32,000 nt of DNA from Nitrosopumilus maritimus SCM1 (GCF_000018465.1 NC_010085.1:870001-902000); one strand, 5' to 3'; positions 928-27,712 are shown, numbered from the stretch's first letter. Notes: generated by a model from the sequence alone, not told the origin. Made by a program: numbers and translations.

Positions 928-2472
928 TTAGTTATTACTATCAGAGTCTCCACTATCAGAGTCTCCACTATCAGAGTCTCCACTATCAGAGATCACGGGT
1001 TCGTTAATTATTTCAGAATTTTGTGAATCATTACTTGTGTCAAATTCATCATTGTTATTTTCAGATGCATTTTGTGTGGGCAAATTATCTGGCACAGGAG
1101 TTGACAAGATTTGGAATACTGTATCATGTTGAGTTTGTGCAGATTGAACTCTTTGGTTAGCAATATCTAATTTTTCTTTTTTATTTTCTTCAAAAGTCAC
1201 AAATTTGAGCAAAGTATTTTGCCTTTTTTCAAGTGCCTTGATTGCCCTTTGTTCTTCTTTACTTCCTAAAGGAGCTTTATCGAGTCTTTCTTTTGCAAGA
1301 TCAACTGCTGTTTTTGCAGCTAATGTTTTTTCAATAGCTATTTGATATTGCACTTCTCGTTTTTGCTCATTTTTTATTGCATTGTTTAGTTGATTCAATG
1401 CTTTTTTCTGTGCTTTAGTTAAGGGGGTTGAGGGCTCAGTAGGAGTTGAGGGCTCAGTAGGAGTTGAGGGCTCAGTAGGAGTTGAGGGCTCAGTAGGAGT
1501 TGAGGGCTCAGTAGGAGTTGAGGGCTCAGTAGGAGTTGAGGGCTCAGTAGGAGTTGAGGGCTCAGTAGGAGTTGAGGGCTCAGTAGGAGTTGAGGGCTCA
1601 GTAGGAGTTGAGGGCTCAGTAGGAGTTGAGGGCTCAGTAGGAGTAGGAGTATTTACAACATAACTTTGTTTAGAGTTTTGACTGTTTTTGTTTTGTTGTT
1701 TTTTAATTAAGGATTCTATTGCATCCCTAGTTTCCAAAAGATCTGTTCGTTTTGATGGTTGTAGTTTTGCTTGATGTTCTAGTGCTTTAATTAACATATT
1801 CCATCTTTCGTTTTGTATCAATTCGTTTATTGTCAAAGCAAAGACTTTGTCAGTTACTTTCGATGCAAAACCTGTTCCTTTGTATTCTTGTTGATTAATT
1901 TTAGCAAATATTTTTCGATATTCTTTAATTTCTTTTAGATTTAGAATTTCAGATTTAATAAAATCTGATTTTTTCTGTTTGTCAACAGATTTTGTTAATT
2001 TTGAATTTACATTATTTGCATGTTGAGTAAGTTTTTGTAATATTTGCTTTTCATGTGAAGAAAAATGCTTTGATACTTGTTCATTCTTTGTAGTCTGTTT
2101 CTTATACATAGTCAATAATTGATTAAACTCAGAAATCAGATTTTCTTGTTCTTCTAATGACAATGTAGGTTGAATACCAACTAAGGCATTTCCAATTGTG
2201 CGAAATTCAAAGGACATTGAAGAAACATTATCTGTTCTTTGTTCTGCAATGGATGAACGAATTTTTTTAAAACCTTGCTCAATTTTCTCTAATTTTTCTG
2301 AATTTGCATCGTCAATTTCAGCACTGGCAAAAGGAACTGAAGCAACTATGCTAGTAAGTAACAATACTGCAAGAAAACTAGCCAGAAACATCAAAGAAAA
2401 TTTTCTAGTATGAGTTACATTTTTGTTCAATATGCTATTAGAATTATTTTCATGGAAAGTTAGAGTCATCAC
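928..2472 (-). CDS. Secreted or surface repeat protein: signal/anchor, helical regions, (PTEPST)x12 linker, acidic (SGDSD)n C-terminal tail
   Basis: 514-aa ORF. Hydrophobic N-terminal segment RKFSLMFLASFLAVLLLTSIVASVPFASAE, heptad-like K/E/Q-rich sequence, a Pro/Thr/Ser tandem repeat and a C-terminal SGDSD repeat. Start is uncertain (GTG 2472, ATG 2469 or a downstream TTG). Confidence 0.8.
   Translation of the reverse strand: MMTLTFHENNSNSILNKNVTHTRKFSLMFLASFLAVLLLTSIVASVPFASAEIDDANSEKLEKIEQGFKKIRSSIAEQRTDNVSSMSFEFRTIGNALVGIQPTLSLEEQENLISEFNQLLTMYKKQTTKNEQVSKHFSSHEKQILQKLTQHANNVNSKLTKSVDKQKKSDFIKSEILNLKEIKEYRKIFAKINQQEYKGTGFASKVTDKVFALTINELIQNERWNMLIKALEHQAKLQPSKRTDLLETRDAIESLIKKQQNKNSQNSKQSYVVNTPTPTEPSTPTEPSTPTEPSTPTEPSTPTEPSTPTEPSTPTEPSTPTEPSTPTEPSTPTEPSTPTEPSTPTEPSTPLTKAQKKALNQLNNAIKNEQKREVQYQIAIEKTLAAKTAVDLAKERLDKAPLGSKEEQRAIKALEKRQNTLLKFVTFEENKKEKLDIANQRVQSAQTQHDTVFQILSTPVPDNLPTQNASENNNDEFDTSNDSQNSEIINEPVISDSGDSDSGDSDSGDSDSNN
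937..992. repeat. 15-bp tandem repeat (tcagagtctccacta) x3 plus a partial copy, encoding (SGDSD)n
   Basis: Read directly from the sequence: three identical units at 941-955, 956-970 and 971-985 with partial flanking copies. Confidence 0.9.
1430..1645. repeat. 18-bp tandem repeat (gagggctcagtaggagtt) x12, encoding (PTEPST)n on the minus strand
   Basis: Counted unit by unit: 11 identical copies and a 12th differing at its last base. There is no synonymous variation between copies. Confidence 0.95.
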
Positions 2473-2506
2473 AGTATAGTATTTTACATTGTTTAATTAT
2501 TTTTTA

Positions 2507-3814
2507 TCAGACTAGGAGCAAAAGTTTGTATAATTTTGTTCTATTCTCTAATAGATCAAGACGTAGTTTTTCAATATTTTGTACTATTTCTGTTGCCTGT
2601 TCTTCACCTGTAGAATCTAGTTTCTTTGAGGTTAGTTGATTTAGTGATTTTCTTTGCTCAGATAGATCTGTTTGTAGTTTATCAATTTTCTTTTCTAATT
2701 TTTCAACTTCAGAAGATGCTTTTGAGTGAGTACTGATTTTAGGTTCAATTGACTCAGAATCAAGTGCGTTAATCTTTGCAATTCCAACTTGGCAGGAATT
2801 TGGCACAATTCTATCAATCAGTTTTACAGTGGTAGATGCAGAATCAGATACAATGTCAATTACAGGAATCCTTACAGTATCTTTACCTGTGCATGCCTCA
2901 AAGACAACATCATATCTCTTTAAATCAGGATTTGAAGAGTCAGGTTTTGCAACTGCTTCAGTTACAGAGATAAGATTTGTACTCATTCCTTCAAGAGGTT
3001 GACCAGTTATGGATTTTGGAAGATCAAGTTCTGTTGCTTTAGTATTTGGAGGCACATACAATACCATCAAATATCTTCTAAGTTGATCTTGAAGACTTTT
3101 GAGTTCTTTTTTAAGTGTTGAAATATTGCTCAAGTTTTCAGGACTTGGTTCTCCATCTCGAGGAATTTTTTGTTTTGCAGCAGTGATTCTTTCTTTCAAA
3201 TCAGTAATCTGGGTTTCAAGAGAAGAGATTTTTTCAGATATTCCACCCTTGTTTAATAGAGTTGCAGAAATAGAATTAGGATCTGCAGCTTTGATAATTA
3301 CAGAACTAGTGTAACAAGAATTAGCTTTTAACATACTTCCTAGTTTTACAGATTTAGTTTCACTATCAGAGGTTACAAAAATTTCAGGATTTCTAACTGT
3401 TTTTGAATCAGCACATGCATCAAAGACAAAAGCATATCCAGTAACTCCTGTAGCAGTTGAGCCTTTGATAACTTTGGTAGATTGTTTTAATGTTGCAATC
3501 TTTTCGATAGTTCCTGCAGGTTCACCCTTTTTTGCCTTCTTGGCAGATATCTCTTCTATTTTTTTCTCAGAGAGAGGGTTTGACCAACCTAATTCAGACA
3601 GTCGTTCAGCAGTCTTTGGTTTTACACATGATGCATCACCAGTGGTTTTTTTGATTAGTTTTACAAGATTTTCACTACATACAACTTGATCAGGAGTAAA
3701 ATCCAACTTCATTTGCATTCTTGGACTAATAACATCTGCAAAACTTGAAGTTGTAAAAGTACTTGAAACAAGAATAAAGCCTAGGAATAATACTAGAAAG
3801 GAGATTGATTTCAC
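2507..3814 (-). CDS. Secreted protein with an N-terminal two-Cys module and an internally duplicated two-Cys domain plus coiled-coil unit
   Basis: 435-aa ORF with GTG start followed directly by a signal-peptide-like KSISFLVLFLGFILVSSTFTTSSFA. The duplication aligns aa 127-190 with aa 301-364 without gaps. Each copy is followed by a heptad-rich stretch. Confidence 0.8.
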   Translation of the reverse strand: MKSISFLVLFLGFILVSSTFTTSSFADVISPRMQMKLDFTPDQVVCSENLVKLIKKTTGDASCVKPKTAERLSELGWSNPLSEKKIEEISAKKAKKGEPAGTIEKIATLKQSTKVIKGSTATGVTGYAFVFDACADSKTVRNPEIFVTSDSETKSVKLGSMLKANSCYTSSVIIKAADPNSISATLLNKGGISEKISSLETQITDLKERITAAKQKIPRDGEPSPENLSNISTLKKELKSLQDQLRRYLMVLYVPPNTKATELDLPKSITGQPLEGMSTNLISVTEAVAKPDSSNPDLKRYDVVFEACTGKDTVRIPVIDIVSDSASTTVKLIDRIVPNSCQVGIAKINALDSESIEPKISTHSKASSEVEKLEKKIDKLQTDLSEQRKSLNQLTSKKLDSTGEEQATEIVQNIEKLRLDLLENRTKLYKLLLLV

Positions 3815-3890
3815 AGTAATGCTTGAAAATTATTATTAAAAAACATATTGTAAAAATTGAGGTTATTCTGCGAGATAAAATGAGTTTATT

Positions 3891-5201
3891 CTATTTAGAG
3901 CTCTTTTGTTCTAGACCAATGTTTTTTAAGAAATTGTTGGATTCATTTAGTGCATGTTTTTTAATTTTAATTCTGTCTTCTTTTTTGATGGATTTGGAAG
4001 CCAGATGAAGTATCTCATCCATTAGATTAATTCCCCCTCTAGCCCCCTTCTTGAGTCCGAGTTGGTAGAGCATTGGAAGTTTTGACATGTTTGAGGTGAC
4101 TTGCATCTTGATTTCAGGTACATTCAGAGATTTTTTATCAGGGGTCTCAATTTCAGTGAATTTGTCAACTACTTTGGATAGTAAAATATCTAGATTCTCA
4201 CCCAAATTACGCTCAAGTTTGGTATTTTTTTCCTTTCTTGCCATCATTACGATTCTTTTGATCTTCAGTAGAGCTTGGTTTGTCTCAACAGATTCAAAAT
4301 CATTTGCAGAGAGGTCCAATCCAAAATCTTTCATGAATGCAGAAGTGATGTATGATATGGCCTCTTTTCTACAAGATGCCTTTGTTGTTCCAAATGGGCA
4401 GTTATCACAATTTGTTGTAAAATATCTAGCTCCACGTTGACCAAAACTTGAAAGAACAATTTTATCTTGATCACGTAATTTGGAGATAGTTCGTGATACA
4501 AGTCCTTCGTCAATCAATAGTGCTTGAGATATTTCTTGGTTAGAATAAGAACCCTCATCAATTAACTCTAGTATCTCTTCTTCTAATTCACCTGGAGAAC
4601 GTCTTGAGGCCTCTTCTATTGCATCAGCTAAGTAATGTAAAACAACCTTATCTCCAGAATCATGGTTAATAGTGAAAGTTTTTCCATCATATGTTGCATC
4701 AAGGCCAGATAATGTTTCTGTTTTAATTATTTTTGCAAGAATTTTGTCTAGATTTTTTATTTTAAAATTATTTAATAACTCGTTTAGATTTTGTTTTGAG
4801 ATTTTTGTTTTGCCAGCTGTAAAAATATAATATAATGCCCAACGAATTTTTCGTTCATCACTTCTCTCAATTAATCGCAATAATTTACAAAAATTGTCTA
4901 TTCGGGCCCATTTTATATCAGATAGTTCATCCTTGGTGTTTTTGATGAATAAAGTCCTGTCTAAGATTTTACAAAATTCATCAAACTGTTTTGCAAGTTC
5001 AGATTTTTTGATTTTTGAAGATTTCTTAATTTTTGTACTTTTTGGAATGAGTTCTAAAAAATCATCTTTGAGAACATTACTTTCGTCTCTTAGGGATTTT
5101 GTCTCATATCGAAAAAACTCAAAGAAACCAAGTGAACCATCAAGTAACGAGGATGGGGGAAATACTCGTAATCCGTTGAGATTAGGAGAAGATAGTCCCA
5201 T
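3891..5201 (-). CDS. Winged-helix (MarR/IclR-like HTH) domain protein with an adjacent Cys cluster; putative regulator
   Basis: 436-aa ORF. The central segment EILELIDEGSYSNQEISQALLIDEGLVSRTISKLRDQDKIVLSSFGQRGARYF fits a wHTH pattern and is followed by TTNCDNCPFGTTKASC. TATA-like ATAAATA (5223-5229) lies 21 nt before the ATG. Confidence 0.75.
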   Translation of the reverse strand: MGLSSPNLNGLRVFPPSSLLDGSLGFFEFFRYETKSLRDESNVLKDDFLELIPKSTKIKKSSKIKKSELAKQFDEFCKILDRTLFIKNTKDELSDIKWARIDNFCKLLRLIERSDERKIRWALYYIFTAGKTKISKQNLNELLNNFKIKNLDKILAKIIKTETLSGLDATYDGKTFTINHDSGDKVVLHYLADAIEEASRRSPGELEEEILELIDEGSYSNQEISQALLIDEGLVSRTISKLRDQDKIVLSSFGQRGARYFTTNCDNCPFGTTKASCRKEAISYITSAFMKDFGLDLSANDFESVETNQALLKIKRIVMMARKEKNTKLERNLGENLDILLSKVVDKFTEIETPDKKSLNVPEIKMQVTSNMSKLPMLYQLGLKKGARGGINLMDEILHLASKSIKKEDRIKIKKHALNESNNFLKNIGLEQKSSK

Positions 5202-7533: not shown

Positions 7534-9155
7534 CTTAATCCTTCTGCTGTTCCATCACGTCTGACTTCGGCAACTCCTTGAAAACCATCTCCAGTTTGAC
7601 GTTTGAGTACAGCATGAATTGCACCCAAAAAGAAAGAGTATCGCTCTCTAATGTCAATTTTATATCCCATTTTTTTGAGATGTTTAATTATTTCAACAAG
7701 CGAATCGTCGTCCTCCAAACTAATTTTTCCATCAACAGTACAATGGATTCTAGGTTTTTCCATGGCTTGATCTATGGAATTATTGTGATCAATTACTCGA
7801 GAAATAAAATGACTCAATGTTGAAAATATTCTTGCACTGCCTGGAGTTCCCAATACCATCCATGGTTCATGATTGTAAAAAATTATTGAAGGACATACAG
7901 ATGTCCATGGAATAGCATTTGGACGTAGATAGAATGGATGGTTTGGATTATCAAACTCATATGCAGACATGTAATTATTATACAAAAATCCCAAACCATC
8001 AGCTGCTGCTTTTGAGCCATAAACCAGTTCTATGGACTGAGTAATTCCCACAGCATTTCCATCCTTGTCCATTACAGAAAGATGTGTTGTATCTTCAGTA
8101 TCAAGGGATTCTTTTAATGGAAGTGTTGGATCAATTGTATCTCTAATAGATTTTGCAAGCGTTTTTGCAAAATTCCTACTCAAGTGAATTTTTTTATCAA
8201 TTTGATGATATGTTTCAGGGTTAAATCTTCGTTGTTCTCTATACAACAATGCCTTTCGATGAGTTTCAGATACATAGTGATATGCTCTTGGAGTCCTAGT
8301 GAGAAACTTGGATGGAAGATTGTTTAACATCATCAACACCAACAACATTGTAGAACCAGCTCCTGGAGGAGGAACAGTATAAACGCGAATACCCCTATAT
8401 CTTCTGCTTATCACTTTTCTCTCAATAGGCATTGGGATTAGTGCAAGGTCTTCCTTTCTTAGGAATCCACGATTTAGTTTCATATCTTTGTCAATTAGTG
8501 TAGAAATCATTCCATGGTAAAATGAACGATAACCATATGTTGCTAATTGCTCAAGAGTGTATGCCAAATCATCTTGTACAAAAAGATCTCCTATTTCATA
8601 TGGTACTTCGCCGTCTTTAAGAAAATACTTTGCGCCAGATTTTGATTTAACTTTAAAGAAATTTTTGAGATGTTTTTCTTGCAGTTCATATTGTAGTTTT
8701 GTAATTCTATATCCTCTTTTAGCAATACGAATTGATGGTTTTACAATGGTTGACCAATCCAATTGCCCATATCGTTCATTAAGATAACCTAATGTTGCCA
8801 CAGTACTTGGCACAGTGGTTGCCTTGTACCCAATGAGGCTGCGAGAGCGTTTTTCAAAAAACGATATGTGTGCTAAAGAAGGAGCCCTGCTTGAACCATC
8901 AACAGCAAATGTCTTTCCATCAACATGCAAGATAGCCATTGATTGTCCGCCTATTCCGGATGCCTGAGGTTCACACACTCCCAAGGCCAATGCAGTAGCA
9001 CAAGCAGCATCTACTGCATTTCCTCCTTTTTTGAGCATTTCAACTCCTGCCTTTGTTGCATCAGGAAATGCAGATGCAACCATCCCATTTTTTGCAACAG
9101 AGCACTTTTTGTTCTTAGTTGTAACAAATGATTTTTCTATAGAACTTACATCCAA
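7530..9155 (-). CDS. ggt: Gamma-glutamyltransferase family protein
   Basis: 541 aa with GMVASAFPDATKAGVEMLKKGGNAVDAACATALALGV at the N-terminus and the autoprocessing/nucleophile region DTTHLSVMDKDGNAVGITQSIE. The track start is TTG (9155); an alternative ATG lies at 9083 (MVASAF...). Confidence 0.9.
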   Translation of the reverse strand: MDVSSIEKSFVTTKNKKCSVAKNGMVASAFPDATKAGVEMLKKGGNAVDAACATALALGVCEPQASGIGGQSMAILHVDGKTFAVDGSSRAPSLAHISFFEKRSRSLIGYKATTVPSTVATLGYLNERYGQLDWSTIVKPSIRIAKRGYRITKLQYELQEKHLKNFFKVKSKSGAKYFLKDGEVPYEIGDLFVQDDLAYTLEQLATYGYRSFYHGMISTLIDKDMKLNRGFLRKEDLALIPMPIERKVISRRYRGIRVYTVPPPGAGSTMLLVLMMLNNLPSKFLTRTPRAYHYVSETHRKALLYREQRRFNPETYHQIDKKIHLSRNFAKTLAKSIRDTIDPTLPLKESLDTEDTTHLSVMDKDGNAVGITQSIELVYGSKAAADGLGFLYNNYMSAYEFDNPNHPFYLRPNAIPWTSVCPSIIFYNHEPWMVLGTPGSARIFSTLSHFISRVIDHNNSIDQAMEKPRIHCTVDGKISLEDDDSLVEIIKHLKKMGYKIDIRERYSFFLGAIHAVLKRQTGDGFQGVAEVRRDGTAEGLR

Positions 9156-11619: not shown

Positions 11620-12884
11620 TCTAGATTCTCCTCAAGAGGTTTTTTCTTAGTAATTCGTAAGGAAACAGGTTTGTTTTTTGAAACCTTTTCAACCTTGATT
11701 TCTAATGCATCAATGTTTATGACATTTCCAACTTGAGGAATATCATGAAGTTTCTCATGCAACAAGCCATTTAATGTAGAATAATCATCACCTCTAGGAA
11801 GATTGGATTTGAAGATTTCATTAATCTCGTCTATTTCAATTTCTCCATTTGCAAGAATTACATCATTATTGATTTTTTGATAATGAGGACTCTTTAGATC
11901 AGTCTCATCATGAATTTCGCCAACTATCTCTTCAATAAGATCTTCTAGAGTAACAAGGCCTTCAACGCCACCAAATTCATCAACAACTATGGCCATATGG
12001 GTATTTTTTGCCTGCATTTGTTTGAGAAGTTCGCTCATTCGTTTTTCCTGAGACACATAGATTGGTTCTCTTACAAATTCTCGTAGTTTCATTTTTTGCA
12101 GTTCTTTATCTTTTAGATGTTTGAGAATATCTCTTACATGAAGAATACCAAGTATGTCATCATGATCCTTTCCATATATGGGGATTCTAGAATGACCACT
12201 CTTGTGAATCTTATCTGCAGCTGTAATTAGTTCCATATCTCCATGCAAACTAAACATTCTAGTTCTTGGCATCATTACAGATCTTATCACAGTATCATCA
12301 AATTTGAGAGCACCGTAAAGTAAATCTCGTTCAGATTTTTCTAAAGCTTCATCTCTATGACCCTGAGCAATAATTCCTTTAATTTCATCCTCAGTTAGGG
12401 CAGGAGGTTGATAATCACTTCCAGTTATTTTGATAATTCCACGAGTTATCTTTTCAAGAATCCAAACTGCAGGATAGAAAACATAACTGAATGTTAACAA
12501 AATTCTACTGCATCGTAAAGCAACTTTTGTGGCATTTGCATTACAATAAGTTTTTGGAGTTACTTCACCAAATATTATTACAAGAAAAGTCATAATACCA
12601 ACTGCAATTCCCACTCCGTTATCTCCAAAAATTTCAATTGCAACTATAGTAGCAAGGGATGCAGAGCCTATATTGACAAGATTATTTCCAAGATTGACAC
12701 TAGACATCATCCATCCAGGATTGGCCTTTAATTTCTGAAGAGATTTTGCGCCCTTTACATTATCTTTGACGAGTCTCTCAATTGTGGCTTGACTTGTACC
12801 CACAAGTGCAACTTCAAGACCACTGAAAAAACCAGAAAGACCAATTAGACCTGCAAGTGCAGCTAGTTGATATTCTAAGCTCAA
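11616..12884 (-). CDS. CNNM/CorC-type transporter (DUF21 TM domain, CBS pair, CorC_HlyC C-terminal domain)
   Basis: 422 aa. N-terminus AALAGLIGLSGFFSGLEVALV, typical of DUF21, then VMMPRTRMFSL...HSRIPIY...ILHVRDIL (CBS pair) and MAIVVDEFGGVEGLVTLEDLIEEIVGEI, then a CorC_HlyC-like tail. TTG start overlaps the upstream stop (TTGA). Confidence 0.85.
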   Translation of the reverse strand: MSLEYQLAALAGLIGLSGFFSGLEVALVGTSQATIERLVKDNVKGAKSLQKLKANPGWMMSSVNLGNNLVNIGSASLATIVAIEIFGDNGVGIAVGIMTFLVIIFGEVTPKTYCNANATKVALRCSRILLTFSYVFYPAVWILEKITRGIIKITGSDYQPPALTEDEIKGIIAQGHRDEALEKSERDLLYGALKFDDTVIRSVMMPRTRMFSLHGDMELITAADKIHKSGHSRIPIYGKDHDDILGILHVRDILKHLKDKELQKMKLREFVREPIYVSQEKRMSELLKQMQAKNTHMAIVVDEFGGVEGLVTLEDLIEEIVGEIHDETDLKSPHYQKINNDVILANGEIEIDEINEIFKSNLPRGDDYSTLNGLLHEKLHDIPQVGNVINIDALEIKVEKVSKNKPVSLRITKKKPLEENLD

Positions 12885-15049
12885 TTTCCACTACACCTAT
12901 ACAACACAGATGCAAGCAGAGCAGAACGTTCTGTGATGCTATCATGAAGTATGTATTCTTGTGTAGAGCGATATTTGTGACCAACAGGACCAAACCCATC
13001 TAGTGCAGGCAATCTTGAAGGCACATTACTAATATCTGAGGACATTATCTGTTCATGGCGTCTTATTTTTAATTCATGTTTTTTAGCCAAATCTTCTACT
13101 TGCTCGTAGAATTTTTTATCAGATTCTTCTTCAATGACTGGAGGTCTTGTTTGTATTTGATTAATTGCAACTTCCAAATTTTTTTGTCCGGATTCTTTTT
13201 TTTGCATAATAGTTCGAATTTTAGAATCCATTGTTTTACCTAATGCAGGAGTTTTAAAACTACAAACTATAGATAACGTTGCATAATTTGGCGCATGGCC
13301 ATGAGTGCCTTGAGCTATAACAGATGTTGTTCTCAGACGATAATTTTTTTCATCTTTTGAAAGTTTTTCAATTGCTGTAATCTTTTTACCAAGTATAGGA
13401 ATTATTCCATGAATATCAGAGGATGTGGAATTAGGAGTGGTGAATCGAATTTGATAGTCATTTCTTCCATAACAAGTAGTAATTATACCTCCATCTTTGC
13501 TTGCAGATTTTAATCCTATAACATACTTTGATTTTTTAGAATATTGTTGGACAAGTTTTTTACTAAAACGTCCGCCTAGACTATCATCGGTTGTAAGCAA
13601 GACACCACATTTTATTTTCTTTAGACGTTTTGCAAAGCGTAAAGCATGCAATGCACCCAGCATTACAGTTAGACCGCCCTTACTTTCAGCTATTCCTGAA
13701 CCGTAAATCCTATCATCATCTTCAAAATACGAGATTAAATCATTTGGACCATAATGAGTATCCATATGAGATATTATCAGAACATCGTTTTTCTCATCCT
13801 CATGGTTCTTAAAATAATGAAAATCTCCAATCTCAAACTGCCTGTGCAAATGCTCAGAGAAGCCCAAGTGTTTCATCCTCCTAGACAACATTGTGCCTAA
13901 TTTGTTTACATTATCGATGTTATGTACATGCGTATTCAAGTTAACAAAATCTTTCAAAGTGTCTTTTTGGTTTTGTAGGTGACTTCTCAGATAAGTGCGT
14001 GCAACAATCCGCAGTGGTTGTGTAAGGTCAGGTTCATGTTCAGTTTCAGGCAATTGAGACGAACCAAAATATCTCATGGTTGCAACGTCTAAAATTTTAT
14101 TGATTAAAGATTCGTAAGTGTATCCAGCTGTTTTTGCGGCATAAAACAAAGAACCACCCATTCCCAAACTCGCCATGGAATTTAGTTCTAGAATGTAGAT
14201 ATTCTCATCTTTATCCATTCTAAAGTCAACTCTAGTATAGTCATTAAGACCCAAAGCTGTGAATGCATCAATGCAAATCTTTTTCATATATTCTGTTTTT
14301 TCTTTGGATAATTTTGCAGGACATGTTTTATCAACACCACCTGTTTTCTTTTTATCTGAAATTGTTTGAATTTTGTCAGGATCTCCAAGATTAATTTCAA
14401 CGATTGGAAGAACCTCAATGTTTGGACTGTTCCCAATTAATCCTACTGCAAACTCTCGTCCAGAGATAAATTGTTCTACTAGAATGTCTTGTTGATATTT
14501 TTCAATCTGAACTTTGACAGCATTTCGCAAATCATCCCAATTATCAACTACTTCCATTCCCATAGAAGTTGATTCTAGTTTTGGTTTTACAATTACGGGG
14601 AAAACTAGATCATCAAATTTATCGTCTGGTGTCTTGAATACCCAAAAACCAGGGGTTGGGATATTATTTTTTTGAAGAACAATTTTGGTCATCACCTTAT
14701 CTTGTACAATTGCATGACCTGCAGGACCAGAGCCAATGTAAGGAATCCCAAGCATCTCCATCATGGCTGGAACATGTGTGTACCTATTTTGCCCTTGAAT
14801 TCCATATGCCATATTGAAAACCATCCCTGGCTTTTCGCCTGAAACTACTTTGGGCATAAACTCACGTAATTCATCAGCAAGATGGATATCACCTTCAATA
14901 ACTTTGACAGAATGACCTCCTTTCTCTAATGCTCTTGCAACTCTTTCAACAGCTTTTGAGCTGTAATGCTCTTTTGTTGTCATTCCAAAAACATTGATGA
15001 CATCATTTGGATCTATCTTCTTTTCATTATAGATTAGTGATACTTTCAT
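12881..15049 (-). CDS. Fusion protein: D-Ala-D-Ala-ligase-type ATP-grasp domain (N-terminal half) plus M20 metallopeptidase-like domain (C-terminal half)
   Basis: ATP-grasp motifs: MKVSLIYNE..., GIPYIGSG, QDKVMTK, EQFISGREFAVG, TRVDFRMDKDENIYILELNS. M20-like motifs: IISHMDTHYGP, GSGIAESKGG, LLTTDDSLGG, GFGPVGHKYRSTQEY. I prefer the ATG at 15049 (MKVSLIY) over the track start at 15112, because the extra 21 codons overlap the upstream mini-ORF and Ddl-like proteins typically begin at this motif. Confidence 0.85.
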   Translation of the reverse strand: MKVSLIYNEKKIDPNDVINVFGMTTKEHYSSKAVERVARALEKGGHSVKVIEGDIHLADELREFMPKVVSGEKPGMVFNMAYGIQGQNRYTHVPAMMEMLGIPYIGSGPAGHAIVQDKVMTKIVLQKNNIPTPGFWVFKTPDDKFDDLVFPVIVKPKLESTSMGMEVVDNWDDLRNAVKVQIEKYQQDILVEQFISGREFAVGLIGNSPNIEVLPIVEINLGDPDKIQTISDKKKTGGVDKTCPAKLSKEKTEYMKKICIDAFTALGLNDYTRVDFRMDKDENIYILELNSMASLGMGGSLFYAAKTAGYTYESLINKILDVATMRYFGSSQLPETEHEPDLTQPLRIVARTYLRSHLQNQKDTLKDFVNLNTHVHNIDNVNKLGTMLSRRMKHLGFSEHLHRQFEIGDFHYFKNHEDEKNDVLIISHMDTHYGPNDLISYFEDDDRIYGSGIAESKGGLTVMLGALHALRFAKRLKKIKCGVLLTTDDSLGGRFSKKLVQQYSKKSKYVIGLKSASKDGGIITTCYGRNDYQIRFTTPNSTSSDIHGIIPILGKKITAIEKLSKDEKNYRLRTTSVIAQGTHGHAPNYATLSIVCSFKTPALGKTMDSKIRTIMQKKESGQKNLEVAINQIQTRPPVIEEESDKKFYEQVEDLAKKHELKIRRHEQIMSSDISNVPSRLPALDGFGPVGHKYRSTQEYILHDSITERSALLASVLYRCSGN

Positions 15050-15084
15050 GAGATATTCACAATATTTTTTGATTGTATTTAATT

Positions 15085-15246
15085 TTAATTTGGTTGGGAT
15101 TTGAGAATCCATGCCTGTTCATTGACATCATGACATTTGCAGTCAGGAGCCTTACCTTTACAGTTTTTTTGGTGTAACTTTGCATCACATTTGTTACAGT
15201 CAGGATCTCTCCAACTTGCTTGATTTCCACAATTCGGGCATCGCAT
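15085..15246 (-). CDS. 53-aa Cys-rich zinc-ribbon mini-protein, first gene of the array
   Basis: Own translation, not in the track: MRCPNCGNQASWRDPDCNKCDAKLHQKNCKGKAPDCKCHDVNEQAWILKSQPN. It has two CxxC knuckles plus three more Cys and two His. TATA-like TTTAAA lies 23 nt upstream of the ATG. Confidence 0.45.
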   Translation of the reverse strand: MRCPNCGNQASWRDPDCNKCDAKLHQKNCKGKAPDCKCHDVNEQAWILKSQPN

Positions 15247-19411: not shown

Positions 19412-20212
19412 TTACTCTTTTAGTTTGCTTTCTTTGAATATATCAGAGCCATACCAACAATATCTAAAATAGTCAAGACACCATTCATGGAACATTGGGT
19501 CATCAGAATAGAGCATCTCACTAATGTCAGACTCACCATCCAATGTAGGAAACATTATGCAGGCTTCTTTTTCGTTTAGAACAACTACTGTTTTGACATC
19601 CTTTTCCATCTTTCTTTCAACGAGTCCCTTTTCCATAAGCTTGTCAAATCCAAGTTTTTTTAGCAATGTCTTTCTTCCCTTTGGAACGACAGCAGACTCT
19701 GAAAAGATATAGTTGAATCGTATACCCTTCTTGACTCTTTTTACAAGCGGTTCAATAAGATCAAGTGGAACTTCAGATAAAATCTCATAGACGTATTCAT
19801 CAGAATTTTTGTATATAGTCTTCCAGGTTTCTAAAACTTTGGATACTCCCTTTACATATTGGGAGTTTGCTAATTGTCCACAACGCATTTGAAACTTGTG
19901 TGGGACATCACCAAAATTGTGTTCTTCAAAATATTTTCTGTTTTGTGACAAAAACACAAGTGATGGGACCTGTGTGCATACAACTTGACCAAATGTTGTA
20001 AGAGAGTACGTTCCTCCAACATTTTTCTTTATCAATCCGGCTTTTTCCAATCTTGAAAAATTTCTGTGTACTTCTTGTTTTGTAGAGTCGATGCTTTTGG
20101 CAAAAGCAGTAGGGGTGGATTGTTTTGTTAGCAATCCAATCAGTATGCTTAATCTCTGAGAGCTTGCAAGCTCCAAGACATAATCTGCAGTCTCATCAAT
20201 CAAGTCAGCCAT
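19412..20212 (-). CDS. Archaeal wHTH transcriptional regulator (ArsR-like N-terminus with a C-terminal FilR1/DUF1724-like domain)
   Basis: 266 aa. SQRLSILIGLLTKQSTPTAFAKSIDSTKQEVHRNFSRLEKAGLIKKNVGGTYSLTTFG is a wHTH. The overall length and C-terminal pattern resemble archaeal DUF1724 regulators; the domain name is tentative. Confidence 0.8.
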   Translation of the reverse strand: MADLIDETADYVLELASSQRLSILIGLLTKQSTPTAFAKSIDSTKQEVHRNFSRLEKAGLIKKNVGGTYSLTTFGQVVCTQVPSLVFLSQNRKYFEEHNFGDVPHKFQMRCGQLANSQYVKGVSKVLETWKTIYKNSDEYVYEILSEVPLDLIEPLVKRVKKGIRFNYIFSESAVVPKGRKTLLKKLGFDKLMEKGLVERKMEKDVKTVVVLNEKEACIMFPTLDGESDISEMLYSDDPMFHEWCLDYFRYCWYGSDIFKESKLKE

Positions 20213-20437: not shown

Positions 20438-20620
20438 TTGCGAGTAGAGAGTTGTAGAAAATGTGGTACAGAATTAGAAATTAGACAAAACTGTTCTGTA
20501 TGCAAAGAACCAAAAAAATTTGAATGTAAAAATTGCAAGGTTGAGACAGATGAGCAAATTCACTCCATATGCAGACTAGTTGACATGAACTATACACCAA
20601 CAATATCAGAGGTTGCATAA
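20438..20620 (+). CDS. 60-aa triple-CxxC zinc-ribbon protein
   Basis: (TTG start) MRVESCRKCGTELEIRQNCSVCKEPKKFECKNCKVETDEQIHSICRLVDMNYTPTISEVA. Its stop overlaps the next ATG (TAATG). Confidence 0.5.
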   Translation: MRVESCRKCGTELEIRQNCSVCKEPKKFECKNCKVETDEQIHSICRLVDMNYTPTISEVA

Positions 20621-20841
20621 TGTCAAGAGAATCTGATCCTCACCCATCATGTATTGGAAAATGCATAAAATTTCAAGCACAAAAACCAAAGGTGGGAAAA
20701 AGATACCAGTTGGGTCAGAAACTATGCCAAGCATGTGATCAATGGATACTATATGATGGAGTGATGTGTCCTTGTTGCCATCACCGACTTAGAACTAGAC
20801 CAAGATGCAAGAAATACAAAGTTGAGGTTGCACGAATTTAG
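20620..20841 (+). CDS. 73-aa zinc-finger protein (C-x2-C ... CPCC-x-x-x-LRTRPR type)
   Basis: KRYQLGQKLCQACDQWILYDGVMCPCCHHRLRTRPR matches a small conserved archaeal protein pattern I recognise (G.KRC..C...i...g..CPCCg..LR..PR). Translationally coupled to the preceding ORF. Confidence 0.65.
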   Translation: MSRESDPHPSCIGKCIKFQAQKPKVGKRYQLGQKLCQACDQWILYDGVMCPCCHHRLRTRPRCKKYKVEVARI

Positions 20842-20843
20842 TT

Positions 20844-21875
20844 TTAAGGAATGTCATTAGTACATTCACCTACATGTTTTATTGTAACATGGCTTGATGC
20901 AATTGCACATTTGTTTCCATATGTTTTCCCATCAACTCCACAGACAGGTGCATACTCTAAAGTGCATGCAAATACTGGAAGAGGTATTTGCCATCCACGT
21001 TGTTCAAGATTCTTTGCTGTTTCAGAAGTTACACATGCAGGTGAGCCGTCATGAGATTTGAAAATCAGATTCAGTTCTTCAGCACATATTACATCTGCAG
21101 ATGAAATACCAGCATCTCCTTGTTGAGATGGTCTAAGATATGGTTGTTTTACTCCATCCATGACACATACTTTGCCAGGATATATCCCAGGACCACATCT
21201 ATCATTTAGGACACATATTTCTCCAAGCGACACAAATCCTGGAGCACATACTCCTTTGTATGGAATGTGTTTTGCAAATGATTTTTGGTCTAAAATTTCA
21301 ATTAACTCATATTTTTTGCTAGATGCATCAGCTGGAGGACTCTCTACATCAGTGACTTTTACAGAAATTTTGTAAGACTTTCCTTCAGCATAATCAAATC
21401 CTTGGATAGAATCATAGAAATTTTGCCAGTTAGAATTAGGATCTTCACGGATTTGCATGCATTTCATAGGTCCTACACCAACACAGTCAACCAGACTTGA
21501 ATCAACATGGAAGATTTTAGTCTCGTAAGGAACTTCTAATCCCAACTCTATTCTAACTTGTTTTCGTAACTCATCAAGTTCCTCTACTGGAATCTGTAGA
21601 CTGACCATTTTTCTAATCTGGTTCATCAAGACTAGTCCTTCTTGATCATGAGATAGTTGGTTTCCTGTTTCCTCAAATGCATAATATGCCTTCATGATTT
21701 CAAGGCGTTGACGGGTATCATCTTCATCAGGGTTGTTCATCCAATTCTCAACCATAACTTTGAGTTCTTGTTGATTAATTGAGGAATAGTTTTCAGAGAT
21801 TGTTTCATCTGCAAAAGAATTTGAAATTGCAAATGTGCCTAACAAAAATAATGAAATAGCAATAATTAGTTTCAT
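20844..21875 (-). CDS. Secreted multidomain protein: signal peptide, DUF4377-like domain, Cys-rich region, two-Cys module, C-terminal Kazal-type serine protease inhibitor domain
   Basis: 343 aa. N-terminus [36 protein letters not shown]...[25 protein letters not shown]...YELIEIL is DUF4377-like (tentative). C-terminus [36 protein letters not shown] carries the Kazal signature. Confidence 0.85.
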
Positions 21876-23091: not shown

Positions 23092-26105
<3,014 letters not shown>

Positions 26106-26240
26106 TACACGACTATGCACGACGATCATTGCAGGTCTCCTGGCAGAGACCCACTACATCCTTCATACATCACTTTTGGTGATGCATTGCATCGATGATT
26201 TGATGTGAAGATTAGTGCATCCGTACACTTTCCTTATCTA
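26106..26240 (-). other. 16S-23S internal transcribed spacer, no tRNA
   Basis: About 135 nt between the rRNAs. It carries halves of both processing stems and has no cloverleaf or T-loop sequence. Confidence 0.8.

Positions 26241-27712
<1,472 letters not shown>

Follow-up and report, generated by a model that had tools for sequence, protein, structure and literature searches.

A short two-disulfide Kazal domain in a secreted multidomain protein of Nitrosopumilus maritimus, a predicted serine protease inhibitor

GmSPI-2, a Kazal inhibitor from the silk of the moth Galleria, has 36 residues and four cysteines, joined in disulfides 5-24 and 13-39, and is potent against subtilisin and proteinase K (PMC4169406). 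It is a free single-domain peptide with Thr at P1 and Trp at P2', and it does without the C1-C5 disulfide of the classical Kazal domains of the ovomucoid and PSTI type, which have six cysteines in 50-60 residues and among which turkey ovomucoid third domain (OMTKY3; e.g. 1CHO, 3SGB and 1PPF) has this bridge between Cys8 and Cys38. Leech-derived tryptase inhibitor (LDTI; 1AN1, 1LDT and 2KMO), also non-classical, has a third disulfide (C-x-C...C-x3-C) and inhibits trypsin and tryptase. Archaeal Kazal proteins have been recorded as well, the orthologous group that covers them, arCOG10350, "Kazal-type serine protease inhibitor", having already been reported in thaumarchaeal comparative genomics (PMC6697440). 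The subject of the present analysis is the Kazal domain at the C-terminus of a 343-residue protein encoded within 32,000 nucleotides of Nitrosopumilus maritimus SCM1 (NC_010085.1:870001-902000), a stretch that is referred to below, at its full length, as the window. The domain is a genuine one, is already recorded in UniProt, Pfam and arCOG, and is a rather unremarkable representative of an established family; it is a predicted inhibitor, and what remains mildly interesting is its function and the modular family of Kazal, Kunitz and DUF4377 domains to which it belongs in ammonia-oxidising archaea.

Identity and predicted structure of the Kazal domain

The gene is complete (20844-21875, minus strand, a range that takes in the stop codon), as judged from the list of open reading frames (ORFs) and from database entries that are 100% identical to the protein (ABX12911.1, WP_012215398.1 and UniProt A9A3H9, all N. 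maritimus SCM1). NCBI names it "DUF4377 domain-containing protein" and UniProt "Proteinase inhibitor I1 Kazal". An earlier note, made from the nucleotide sequence alone, had placed a Kazal peptide at 20862-20969, at the C-terminus of a secreted protein, and had given no strand; the reverse complement of this range encodes residues 303-338 exactly, and the plus-strand reading, a nonsense translation with stops, was rejected. The protein begins with a putative Sec-type signal sequence read from its first 22 residues (21810-21875, minus strand), which is likely to be cleaved before DETI and which falls within a segment, residues 1-28, that AlphaFold2 models with a predicted local distance difference test (pLDDT) below 50. 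The signal peptide, together with 12 cysteines that pair within domains, fits an exported protein in an oxidising, extracytoplasmic location.

Both Pfam Kazal profiles match residues 303-338 above their gathering thresholds, Kazal_1 (PF00050) with 38.3 bits against 21 (E 1.4e-9) and Kazal_2 (PF07648) with 26.2 bits against 22.8, and a phmmer search of all PDB sequences placed ovomucoid third domains first (1r0r_I, E 6e-8), followed by other proven inhibitors. Given that both profiles exceed curated cut-offs and that ovomucoid heads the PDB matches, the similarity to Kazal domains is far beyond chance. The alignment with OMTKY3 runs ACTLEY(A/R)P(V/L)CG(V/S)D(G/N)KTYGNKC, as the earlier note had given it, and is followed by a deletion of six residues after C4, the helix and C-terminal half of OMTKY3 being longer by that number. 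The shared residues include the P1 Leu, P1' Glu, P2' Tyr and spacer Asn, and over the first 20 residues of the core 16 are identical, the likeness being confined to the consensus half. Four of the six classical cysteines are kept (304, 312, 323 and 338, spaced C-x7-C-x10-C-x14-C) whereas Cys8 and Cys38 of OMTKY3 have no counterpart, so the absence of the C1-C5 pair that the note had described is borne out by the alignment.

The residues of the reactive site are all present (C304, T305, L306, E307, Y308, G320 and N321), and with them the canonical set of P3 Cys, P2 Thr or Pro, P1, P2' Tyr and the P15' spacer Asn. Leu306, specified by the TTA codon at 20958-20960 (minus strand), aligns with Leu18 of OMTKY3, as had been proposed, and is the predicted P1 residue of the bond Leu306-Glu307, which corresponds to Leu18-Glu19. 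At what we take, from the work of Laskowski, to be the twelve consensus contact positions of OMTKY3, eight residues are identical (P4 Ala, P3 Cys, P2 Thr, P1 Leu, P1' Glu, P2' Tyr, P14' Gly and P15' Asn). On sequence comparison, this ovomucoid-like loop is the general Kazal consensus, found in many bacteria as well.

In an AlphaFold2 model of the 343-residue protein, built on 74 homologues and with a mean pLDDT of 84, the Kazal part is predicted at a pLDDT of 93-96 with strands at 311-313 and 332-335 and a helix at 322-327, and thus shows the beta-hairpin, short alpha-helix, C-terminal strand and exposed N-terminal loop of the Kazal fold. Compared with the PDB by Foldseek, the model matched 4hgu, 1an1 and OMTKY3 complexes, each with a probability of 1.00. 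The predicted structure lies closest to GmSPI-2 (4hgu; template modelling (TM) score 0.90, root-mean-square deviation 0.9 Å, 49% identity) and LDTI (1an1; 0.89 and 1.0 Å), and less close to the OMTKY3 complexes (0.60-0.67 and 2.3 Å). Judged from this model, the best structural analogue would be GmSPI-2 or LDTI and not the classical ovomucoid third domain; the likeness to ovomucoid on which the earlier note had dwelt holds for the consensus loop and does not extend to the closest analogue, which is of the short GmSPI-2 type. LDTI has an equally compact core but shares only 16 of 35 core residues with the N. maritimus domain. GmSPI-2 shares 19 of 35 (33 bits in phmmer) and has the same 35-residue core from first to last cysteine, with its four cysteines at the same places, but it occurs as a free peptide in which P1 is Thr and P2' is Trp, whereas the N. 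maritimus domain is the C-terminal module of a longer protein and has P1 Leu and P2' Tyr.

Since the four cysteines are those of GmSPI-2, the same two disulfides (C2-C4 and C3-C6) are expected. A family member with cysteine spacing identical to that of the window domain, P0104, aligns with GmSPI-2 without gaps and cysteine for cysteine (54 bits), and by analogy with the bridges reported for GmSPI-2 the pairs in the N. maritimus domain would be C304-C323 and C312-C338. Given the profile matches, the fit of the predicted structure to GmSPI-2, the missing equivalents of Cys8 and Cys38 and the weaker match to OMTKY3, residues 303-338 are assigned to the short, non-classical, two-disulfide kind of Kazal domain (MEROPS I1).

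The thaumarchaeal family and the predicted inhibitory function

A search with the full-length protein returned 321 homologues, and every one with a named source comes from Nitrosopumilus, Nitrosopumilaceae or Nitrososphaeria. Their domains are shuffled: DUF4377 occurs with Kazal, with Kazal and a metallo-beta-lactamase (MBL)-fold hydrolase, with a Kunitz_BPTI domain with or without Kazal, or alone, and Kazal domains also occur in tandem or joined to the MBL hydrolase without DUF4377, the last of these being the architecture of a second N. maritimus gene, ABX13254.1 (paralogue P0096). From 121 sequences, 104 Kazal domains (100 unique) were extracted by a regular expression that demanded four cysteines and restricted several scaffold positions, and the invariance that follows is thus partly imposed by construction: exactly four cysteines in 103 of the 104 domains, a 35-residue core in all but one, and, among the 100 unique domains, Thr at P2 in 97%, Pro at P4' in 99%, and Gly10, Tyr16, Asn18 and the four cysteines in 100%. 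Position P1, by comparison, is Leu in 79 of the unique domains, Met in 6, Lys in 4, Arg in 4, Ala in 3, Gln in 2 and Ser in 2. Canonical inhibitors are recognised by just this pattern, in which the scaffold stays constant while P1 changes. In the homologues with tandem Kazal domains (7/7), the first domain has Lys, Arg or Ala at P1 and the second Leu or Met, a pairing that suggests dual specificity.

Ten homologues (P0076, P0077, P0085, P0087, P0093-P0095, P0102, P0107 and P0110; e.g. 8001-8984 of locus L003) carry a Kunitz/BPTI domain after DUF4377, either alongside the Kazal module or in its place, with Pfam Kunitz scores of 46-51 bits in two of them. These domains read ...AGLCKAYMPKYYFD...FIWGGC... 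and contain the motif C-K-A, which we take to be the reactive site of BPTI with Lys at P1. Given that Kunitz is a second, unrelated protease-inhibitor fold, its presence in the family lends independent support to an inhibitory function; no discussion of archaeal Kunitz-BPTI domains was found in the literature searched.

With Leu at P1 and a loop that agrees with OMTKY3 at eight of the twelve contact positions, canonical inhibition of subtilisin-, chymotrypsin- or elastase-like enzymes would be the most likely function of the domain; taken together with the GmSPI-2-like scaffold, this P1 residue points to enzymes of the subtilisin, proteinase K, chymotrypsin or elastase type. It is thus probable that the protein is exported and that its short C-terminal Kazal domain is a standard-mechanism (Laskowski) inhibitor. 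In such a mechanism the protein would reach the pseudoperiplasm or the cell surface of this ammonia oxidiser, where the loop V301-F-A-C-T-L306-E307-Y-A, kept rigid by C304-C323 and C312-C338 and by Asn321 as spacer, would enter the active site of a serine protease in the manner of a substrate, with Leu306 occupying the S1 pocket, and would be hydrolysed only at an extremely low rate. The DUF4377 domain, the Cys-rich hairpins and the WING-49 domain that precede it might act as carrier, anchoring or extra binding modules. Candidate targets would be the organism's own membrane-anchored S8A subtilisins, or foreign proteases of bacteria or grazers that threaten surface proteins.

The genomes of most thaumarchaeotes encode about two S08A subtilisins, the majority of them anchored in the membrane, and serpins are absent from nearly all free-living ammonia-oxidising archaea (PMC6790972), which means that plausible targets exist, that the niche for an inhibitor is open and that an endogenous target is possible. 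The Kazal variants with Lys or Arg at P1, together with the Kunitz domains and the extensive shuffling of domains, would nevertheless be a better fit to defence against foreign proteases. It is a tentative possibility that free-living ammonia-oxidising archaea possess an anti-protease toolkit of their own outside the cell, dedicated to this purpose and not described before, in which DUF4377 is shuffled with short Kazal domains (P1 Leu, Met, Lys, Arg or Ala), BPTI-type Kunitz domains and sometimes MBL hydrolases, and which would protect the S-layer and the enzymes of the pseudoperiplasm against the proteases of bacteria or grazers. DUF4377 might then serve in protease docking, a hint taken from Acinetobacter baumannii CipA, in which recruitment of the serine protease complement factor I depends on the DUF4377 domain (PMC9361855); no other functional data on DUF4377 came to light in the literature searched. 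CipA has the architecture META-META-DUF4377 and shares this one domain with the N. maritimus protein, but it belongs to a bacterial pathogen, its partner domains are all different and it has no Kazal domain, so that it serves as a lead only. Should such a toolkit exist, it would provide the first demonstrated cases in Archaea of Kazal and Kunitz domains that work as canonical inhibitors. Among marine ammonia oxidisers N. maritimus serves as the model, and the protection and regulation of its surface proteome are hardly understood; the domain-shuffled family suggests that these archaea, abundant in the ocean, are under a protease pressure of some importance, and the 343-residue protein is a candidate inhibitor that is small, can be expressed and lends itself readily to testing.

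A rather unlikely variant of the inhibitor reading is that the protein is a housekeeping regulator of the organism's own membrane-anchored S8A subtilisins in the pseudoperiplasm and has no part in defence against foreign proteases. The presence of these enzymes in most thaumarchaeotes would suit such a role, as would the lack of serpins in nearly all free-living ammonia-oxidising archaea, the vertical conservation of the family across the group and the prevalence of P1 Leu or Met, residues that suit subtilisins. However, three observations sit less well with it: first, no gene for a partner protease was found in the window or beside the homologues examined, and hence no genomic linkage. Second, the Kazal domains with P1 Lys or Arg and the Kunitz domains with Lys at the P1 position of BPTI point to trypsin-like targets, and nothing known to us would lead one to look for such targets in these archaea. 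Third, the domain shuffling and the diversification at P1 are more suggestive of an arms race against foreign enzymes.

It is unlikely, and less likely than regulation of endogenous subtilisins, that the Kazal domain has a structural or binding role and inhibits no protease, like the modules seen in follistatin, agrin or SPARC, with the real activity residing in DUF4377 or in the fused MBL hydrolase; the part then left to the Kazal domain, that of stabilising or targeting the extracellular protein, is improbable to the same degree. Several points do weigh against inhibition. Many eukaryotic Kazal modules (follistatin, agrin, SPARC and RECK) are not inhibitors, and follistatin is among the weaker entries returned by Foldseek. 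The Cys-rich hairpins, WING-49 and Kazal domains move as a block that is fused in many homologues, including paralogue P0096, to an MBL-fold hydrolase with no obvious link to the control of proteases. Moreover, the disulfide pairing and the geometry of the reactive loop come from prediction, the missing protease gene noted above counts here as well, and the literature search found no biochemical data for A9A3H9 or for any prokaryotic Kazal domain; it found no mention of the accession numbers or of the presumed locus tag Nmar_1015, and Kazal and Nitrosopumilus linked only in one comparative-genomics mention. The MBL fusions and the lack of biochemical data in the literature make a non-inhibitory role the main rival. 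Against it, the reactive-loop residues are conserved where inhibitors need them, with P1 as the variable site, the tandem domains have complementary P1 types, BPTI-type Kunitz domains with C-K-A occur in the same family, and the closest relatives of solved structure are active inhibitors. Inhibition by the standard mechanism is accordingly preferred.

Distribution among prokaryotes and origin

The 47-residue domain was searched exhaustively against 1.84 billion cluster representatives, of which 8,106 matched at E ≤ 1e-3, many of them proteins in which several Kazal domains with this short core are repeated; since summed scores favour such proteins, the matches were re-ranked by single-domain score. 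In a separate scan, in which each bacterial or archaeal species was represented by a single genome, at least 120 loci matched the signature P-V-C-G-x-[DN]-x-x-T-Y-x-N-x-C in back-translated form, where a rough calculation of our own gives a chance expectation of about one. The counts that follow are among the matches listed, 115 of which are bacterial and 5 archaeal. The bacterial loci are from Bacteroidota (including cultured Hymenobacter, Belliella and Dyadobacter), Myxococcota, Alpha-, Beta- and Gammaproteobacteria, Planctomycetota, Thermoanaerobaculia, Omnitrophota, the candidate phyla radiation (CPR) and Bacteriovoracaceae, and the archaeal ones from Nitrosopumilus, Nitrososphaera, Micrarchaeota, Diapherotrites and Altiarchaeota. 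Every translated match holds a proper Kazal core (157/157), with the exact 35-residue length between outer cysteines in 115 of 155 cores; the loop C-T-x-E-Y-x-P-V-C-G recurs often among them, with a hypervariable P1. Among the matches listed, the cores nearest to the N. maritimus domain are prokaryotic, with 24 of 35 residues identical in a Thermoanaerobaculia lipoprotein (L036) and in a Micrarchaeota sequence (L038), against the 19 of GmSPI-2.

The prokaryotic short Kazal domains (PF00050/PF07648; arCOG10350) thus have the spacing C-x7-C-x10-C-x14-C and the loop in common with the N. maritimus domain. The bacterial copies differ in that most have a fifth cysteine (C-G-C-D-G) and occur in tandem-repeat or lipoprotein architectures, whereas the thaumarchaeal family has four cysteines and partners of its own, namely DUF4377, WING-49, the MBL hydrolase and Kunitz. 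The short two-disulfide Kazal domain is not an animal oddity, as is commonly assumed, but the standard prokaryotic form, present in many bacterial phyla and several archaeal lineages.

At the locus itself, the gene has a GC content of 0.365, and 0.22 at third codon positions (GC3), equal to those of the neighbouring genes. Synteny was compared with one distant orthologue, P0104 (48% identity), in which a 266-residue gene of the HVO_A0261_N family follows, as it does downstream in the window; the same regulator family in the same place indicates vertical inheritance. None of the marks of a recent horizontal acquisition (atypical composition, patchy distribution or eukaryotic nearest relatives) was found, and with native GC and GC3 and a gene order kept in P0104 there is no sign of one from a eukaryote. 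The alternatives offered in the earlier note, that a mainly eukaryotic, ovomucoid-like domain had been acquired horizontally or that an archaeal family had been overlooked, are very improbable: bird ovomucoids are indeed the best PDB sequence matches, with the 16 of 20 residues given above, and Kazal inhibitors have historically been studied in animals, but the composition is native, hundreds of orthologues occur across Nitrosopumilaceae, the same core lies at the bacterial and archaeal loci just described and is nearer to theirs than to that of GmSPI-2, the C-terminal half departs from ovomucoid in its deletion and missing cysteine, and a family that has its UniProt annotation and arCOG10350 is not an overlooked one. 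The archaeal source of the DNA is confirmed: contamination, which the note had thought unlikely, is excluded by the identity of the sequence to the closed SCM1 genome (1,645,259 bp) and by the adjoining archaeal rRNA operon.

Some further observations concern individual Kazal proteins. GmSPI-2 (4HGU/2M5X) has been described as structurally unique and as the shortest animal Kazal domain, yet its core layout is that of the prokaryotic standard; its gapless 54-bit match to the thaumarchaeal P0104 raises the question of transfer from a prokaryote to an insect or of convergence. Another moth, Loxostege sticticalis, is the source of the Kazal match P0162. The Thermoanaerobaculia protein (985-1515 of L036, plus strand) is a lipoprotein of 176 residues with the lipobox LLTAC and little beyond two Kazal domains, with Arg and Glu at P1; the first of the two domains, at 24 of 35 residues, is the closest match from outside the Thaumarchaeota among those listed. 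Short Kazal cores also occur in ammonia-oxidising bacteria, at 4184-4225 of L058 (Nitrosospira) and 6550-6591 of L059 (Nitrosomonas), e.g. CTKEYKPVCGCDGKTYGNAC; a Kazal type common to bacterial and archaeal ammonia oxidisers may be coincidence or may reflect a shared ecological pressure.

Other domains of the protein and the genomic neighbourhood

Between the signal sequence and the Kazal domain lie four further regions, all encoded on the minus strand. Residues ~30-110 (21546-21788) are predicted by AlphaFold2 to form four helices (35-47, 53-69, 78-92 and 97-110); the region has no Pfam match and is present only in the longer homologues, being common to P0087 and P0089. DUF4377 (PF14302; E 7e-31, 106.4 bits against a cut-off of 25) occupies residues 123-196 (21288-21509), with Cys131 and Cys139, and is modelled as an all-beta domain with strands spanning 117-199. 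No confident structural match to its fold was obtained, Foldseek returning low-probability OB-fold-like entries only from the PDB and nothing meaningful from BFVD. The DUF4377 segment also shows a similarity to the C-terminal motif of a protocadherin EC-repeat in phmmer against the PDB, which at E 0.002 and 21 bits is too weak to use other than as a lead. It is followed by a hairpin module of four cysteines (C210, C221, C227 and C237; residues ~203-240, 21156-21269), delimited from alignment columns and from predicted strands at 214-217 and 220-223 and nearly invariant across the family, and by a WING-49 domain (NF058652 of NCBIfam; E 1.4e-19, 70 bits against a cut-off of 22) at residues 249-296 (20988-21131), which contains C264 and C281, ends in ...RGW and is modelled at a pLDDT above 90 as a helix, two strands and a helix.

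The HVO_A0261_N-type gene encodes a winged-helix regulator of 266 residues, identified by its Pfam match (19412-20212, minus strand), and its linkage to the Kazal gene, seen again at the P0104 loci L001 and L002, is conserved. On the other side, 1.2 kb from the Kazal gene, lies the archaeal rRNA operon (23103-27711; 23S at 23103-26092 and 16S at 26241-27711), and no tRNAs or RNA families beyond this operon were found in the window. A search of PADLOC defence models gave a single DpdE-like stretch at 18 bits, which was taken as noise. The window also encodes a gamma-glutamyltranspeptidase, a fusion of M20 peptidase and ATP-grasp, transporters, Usp and a nitroreductase.

Between the regulator and the Kazal gene, two tiny abutting ORFs (20438-20620 and 20620-20841, both plus strand; 60 and 73 residues), each with several CxxC pairs and zinc-ribbon-like, converge on the 3' end of the Kazal gene and stop 3 nt short of its stop codon; neither has a Pfam match. 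Further away in this well-studied genome lies an uncharacterised block of three successive large ORFs of 514, 435 and 436 residues (928-5201, minus strand), none of which matches a Pfam profile at E ≤ 1e-4. The ATP-grasp/M20 fusion is an ORF of 743 residues (12881-15112, minus strand) in which an ATP-grasp domain of the D-Ala-D-Ala-ligase type is joined to the peptidase M20 domain; it lies upstream of genes for CNNM/CorC, CorA and an ion channel and near those for the gamma-glutamyltranspeptidase and an N-formylglutamate amidohydrolase.

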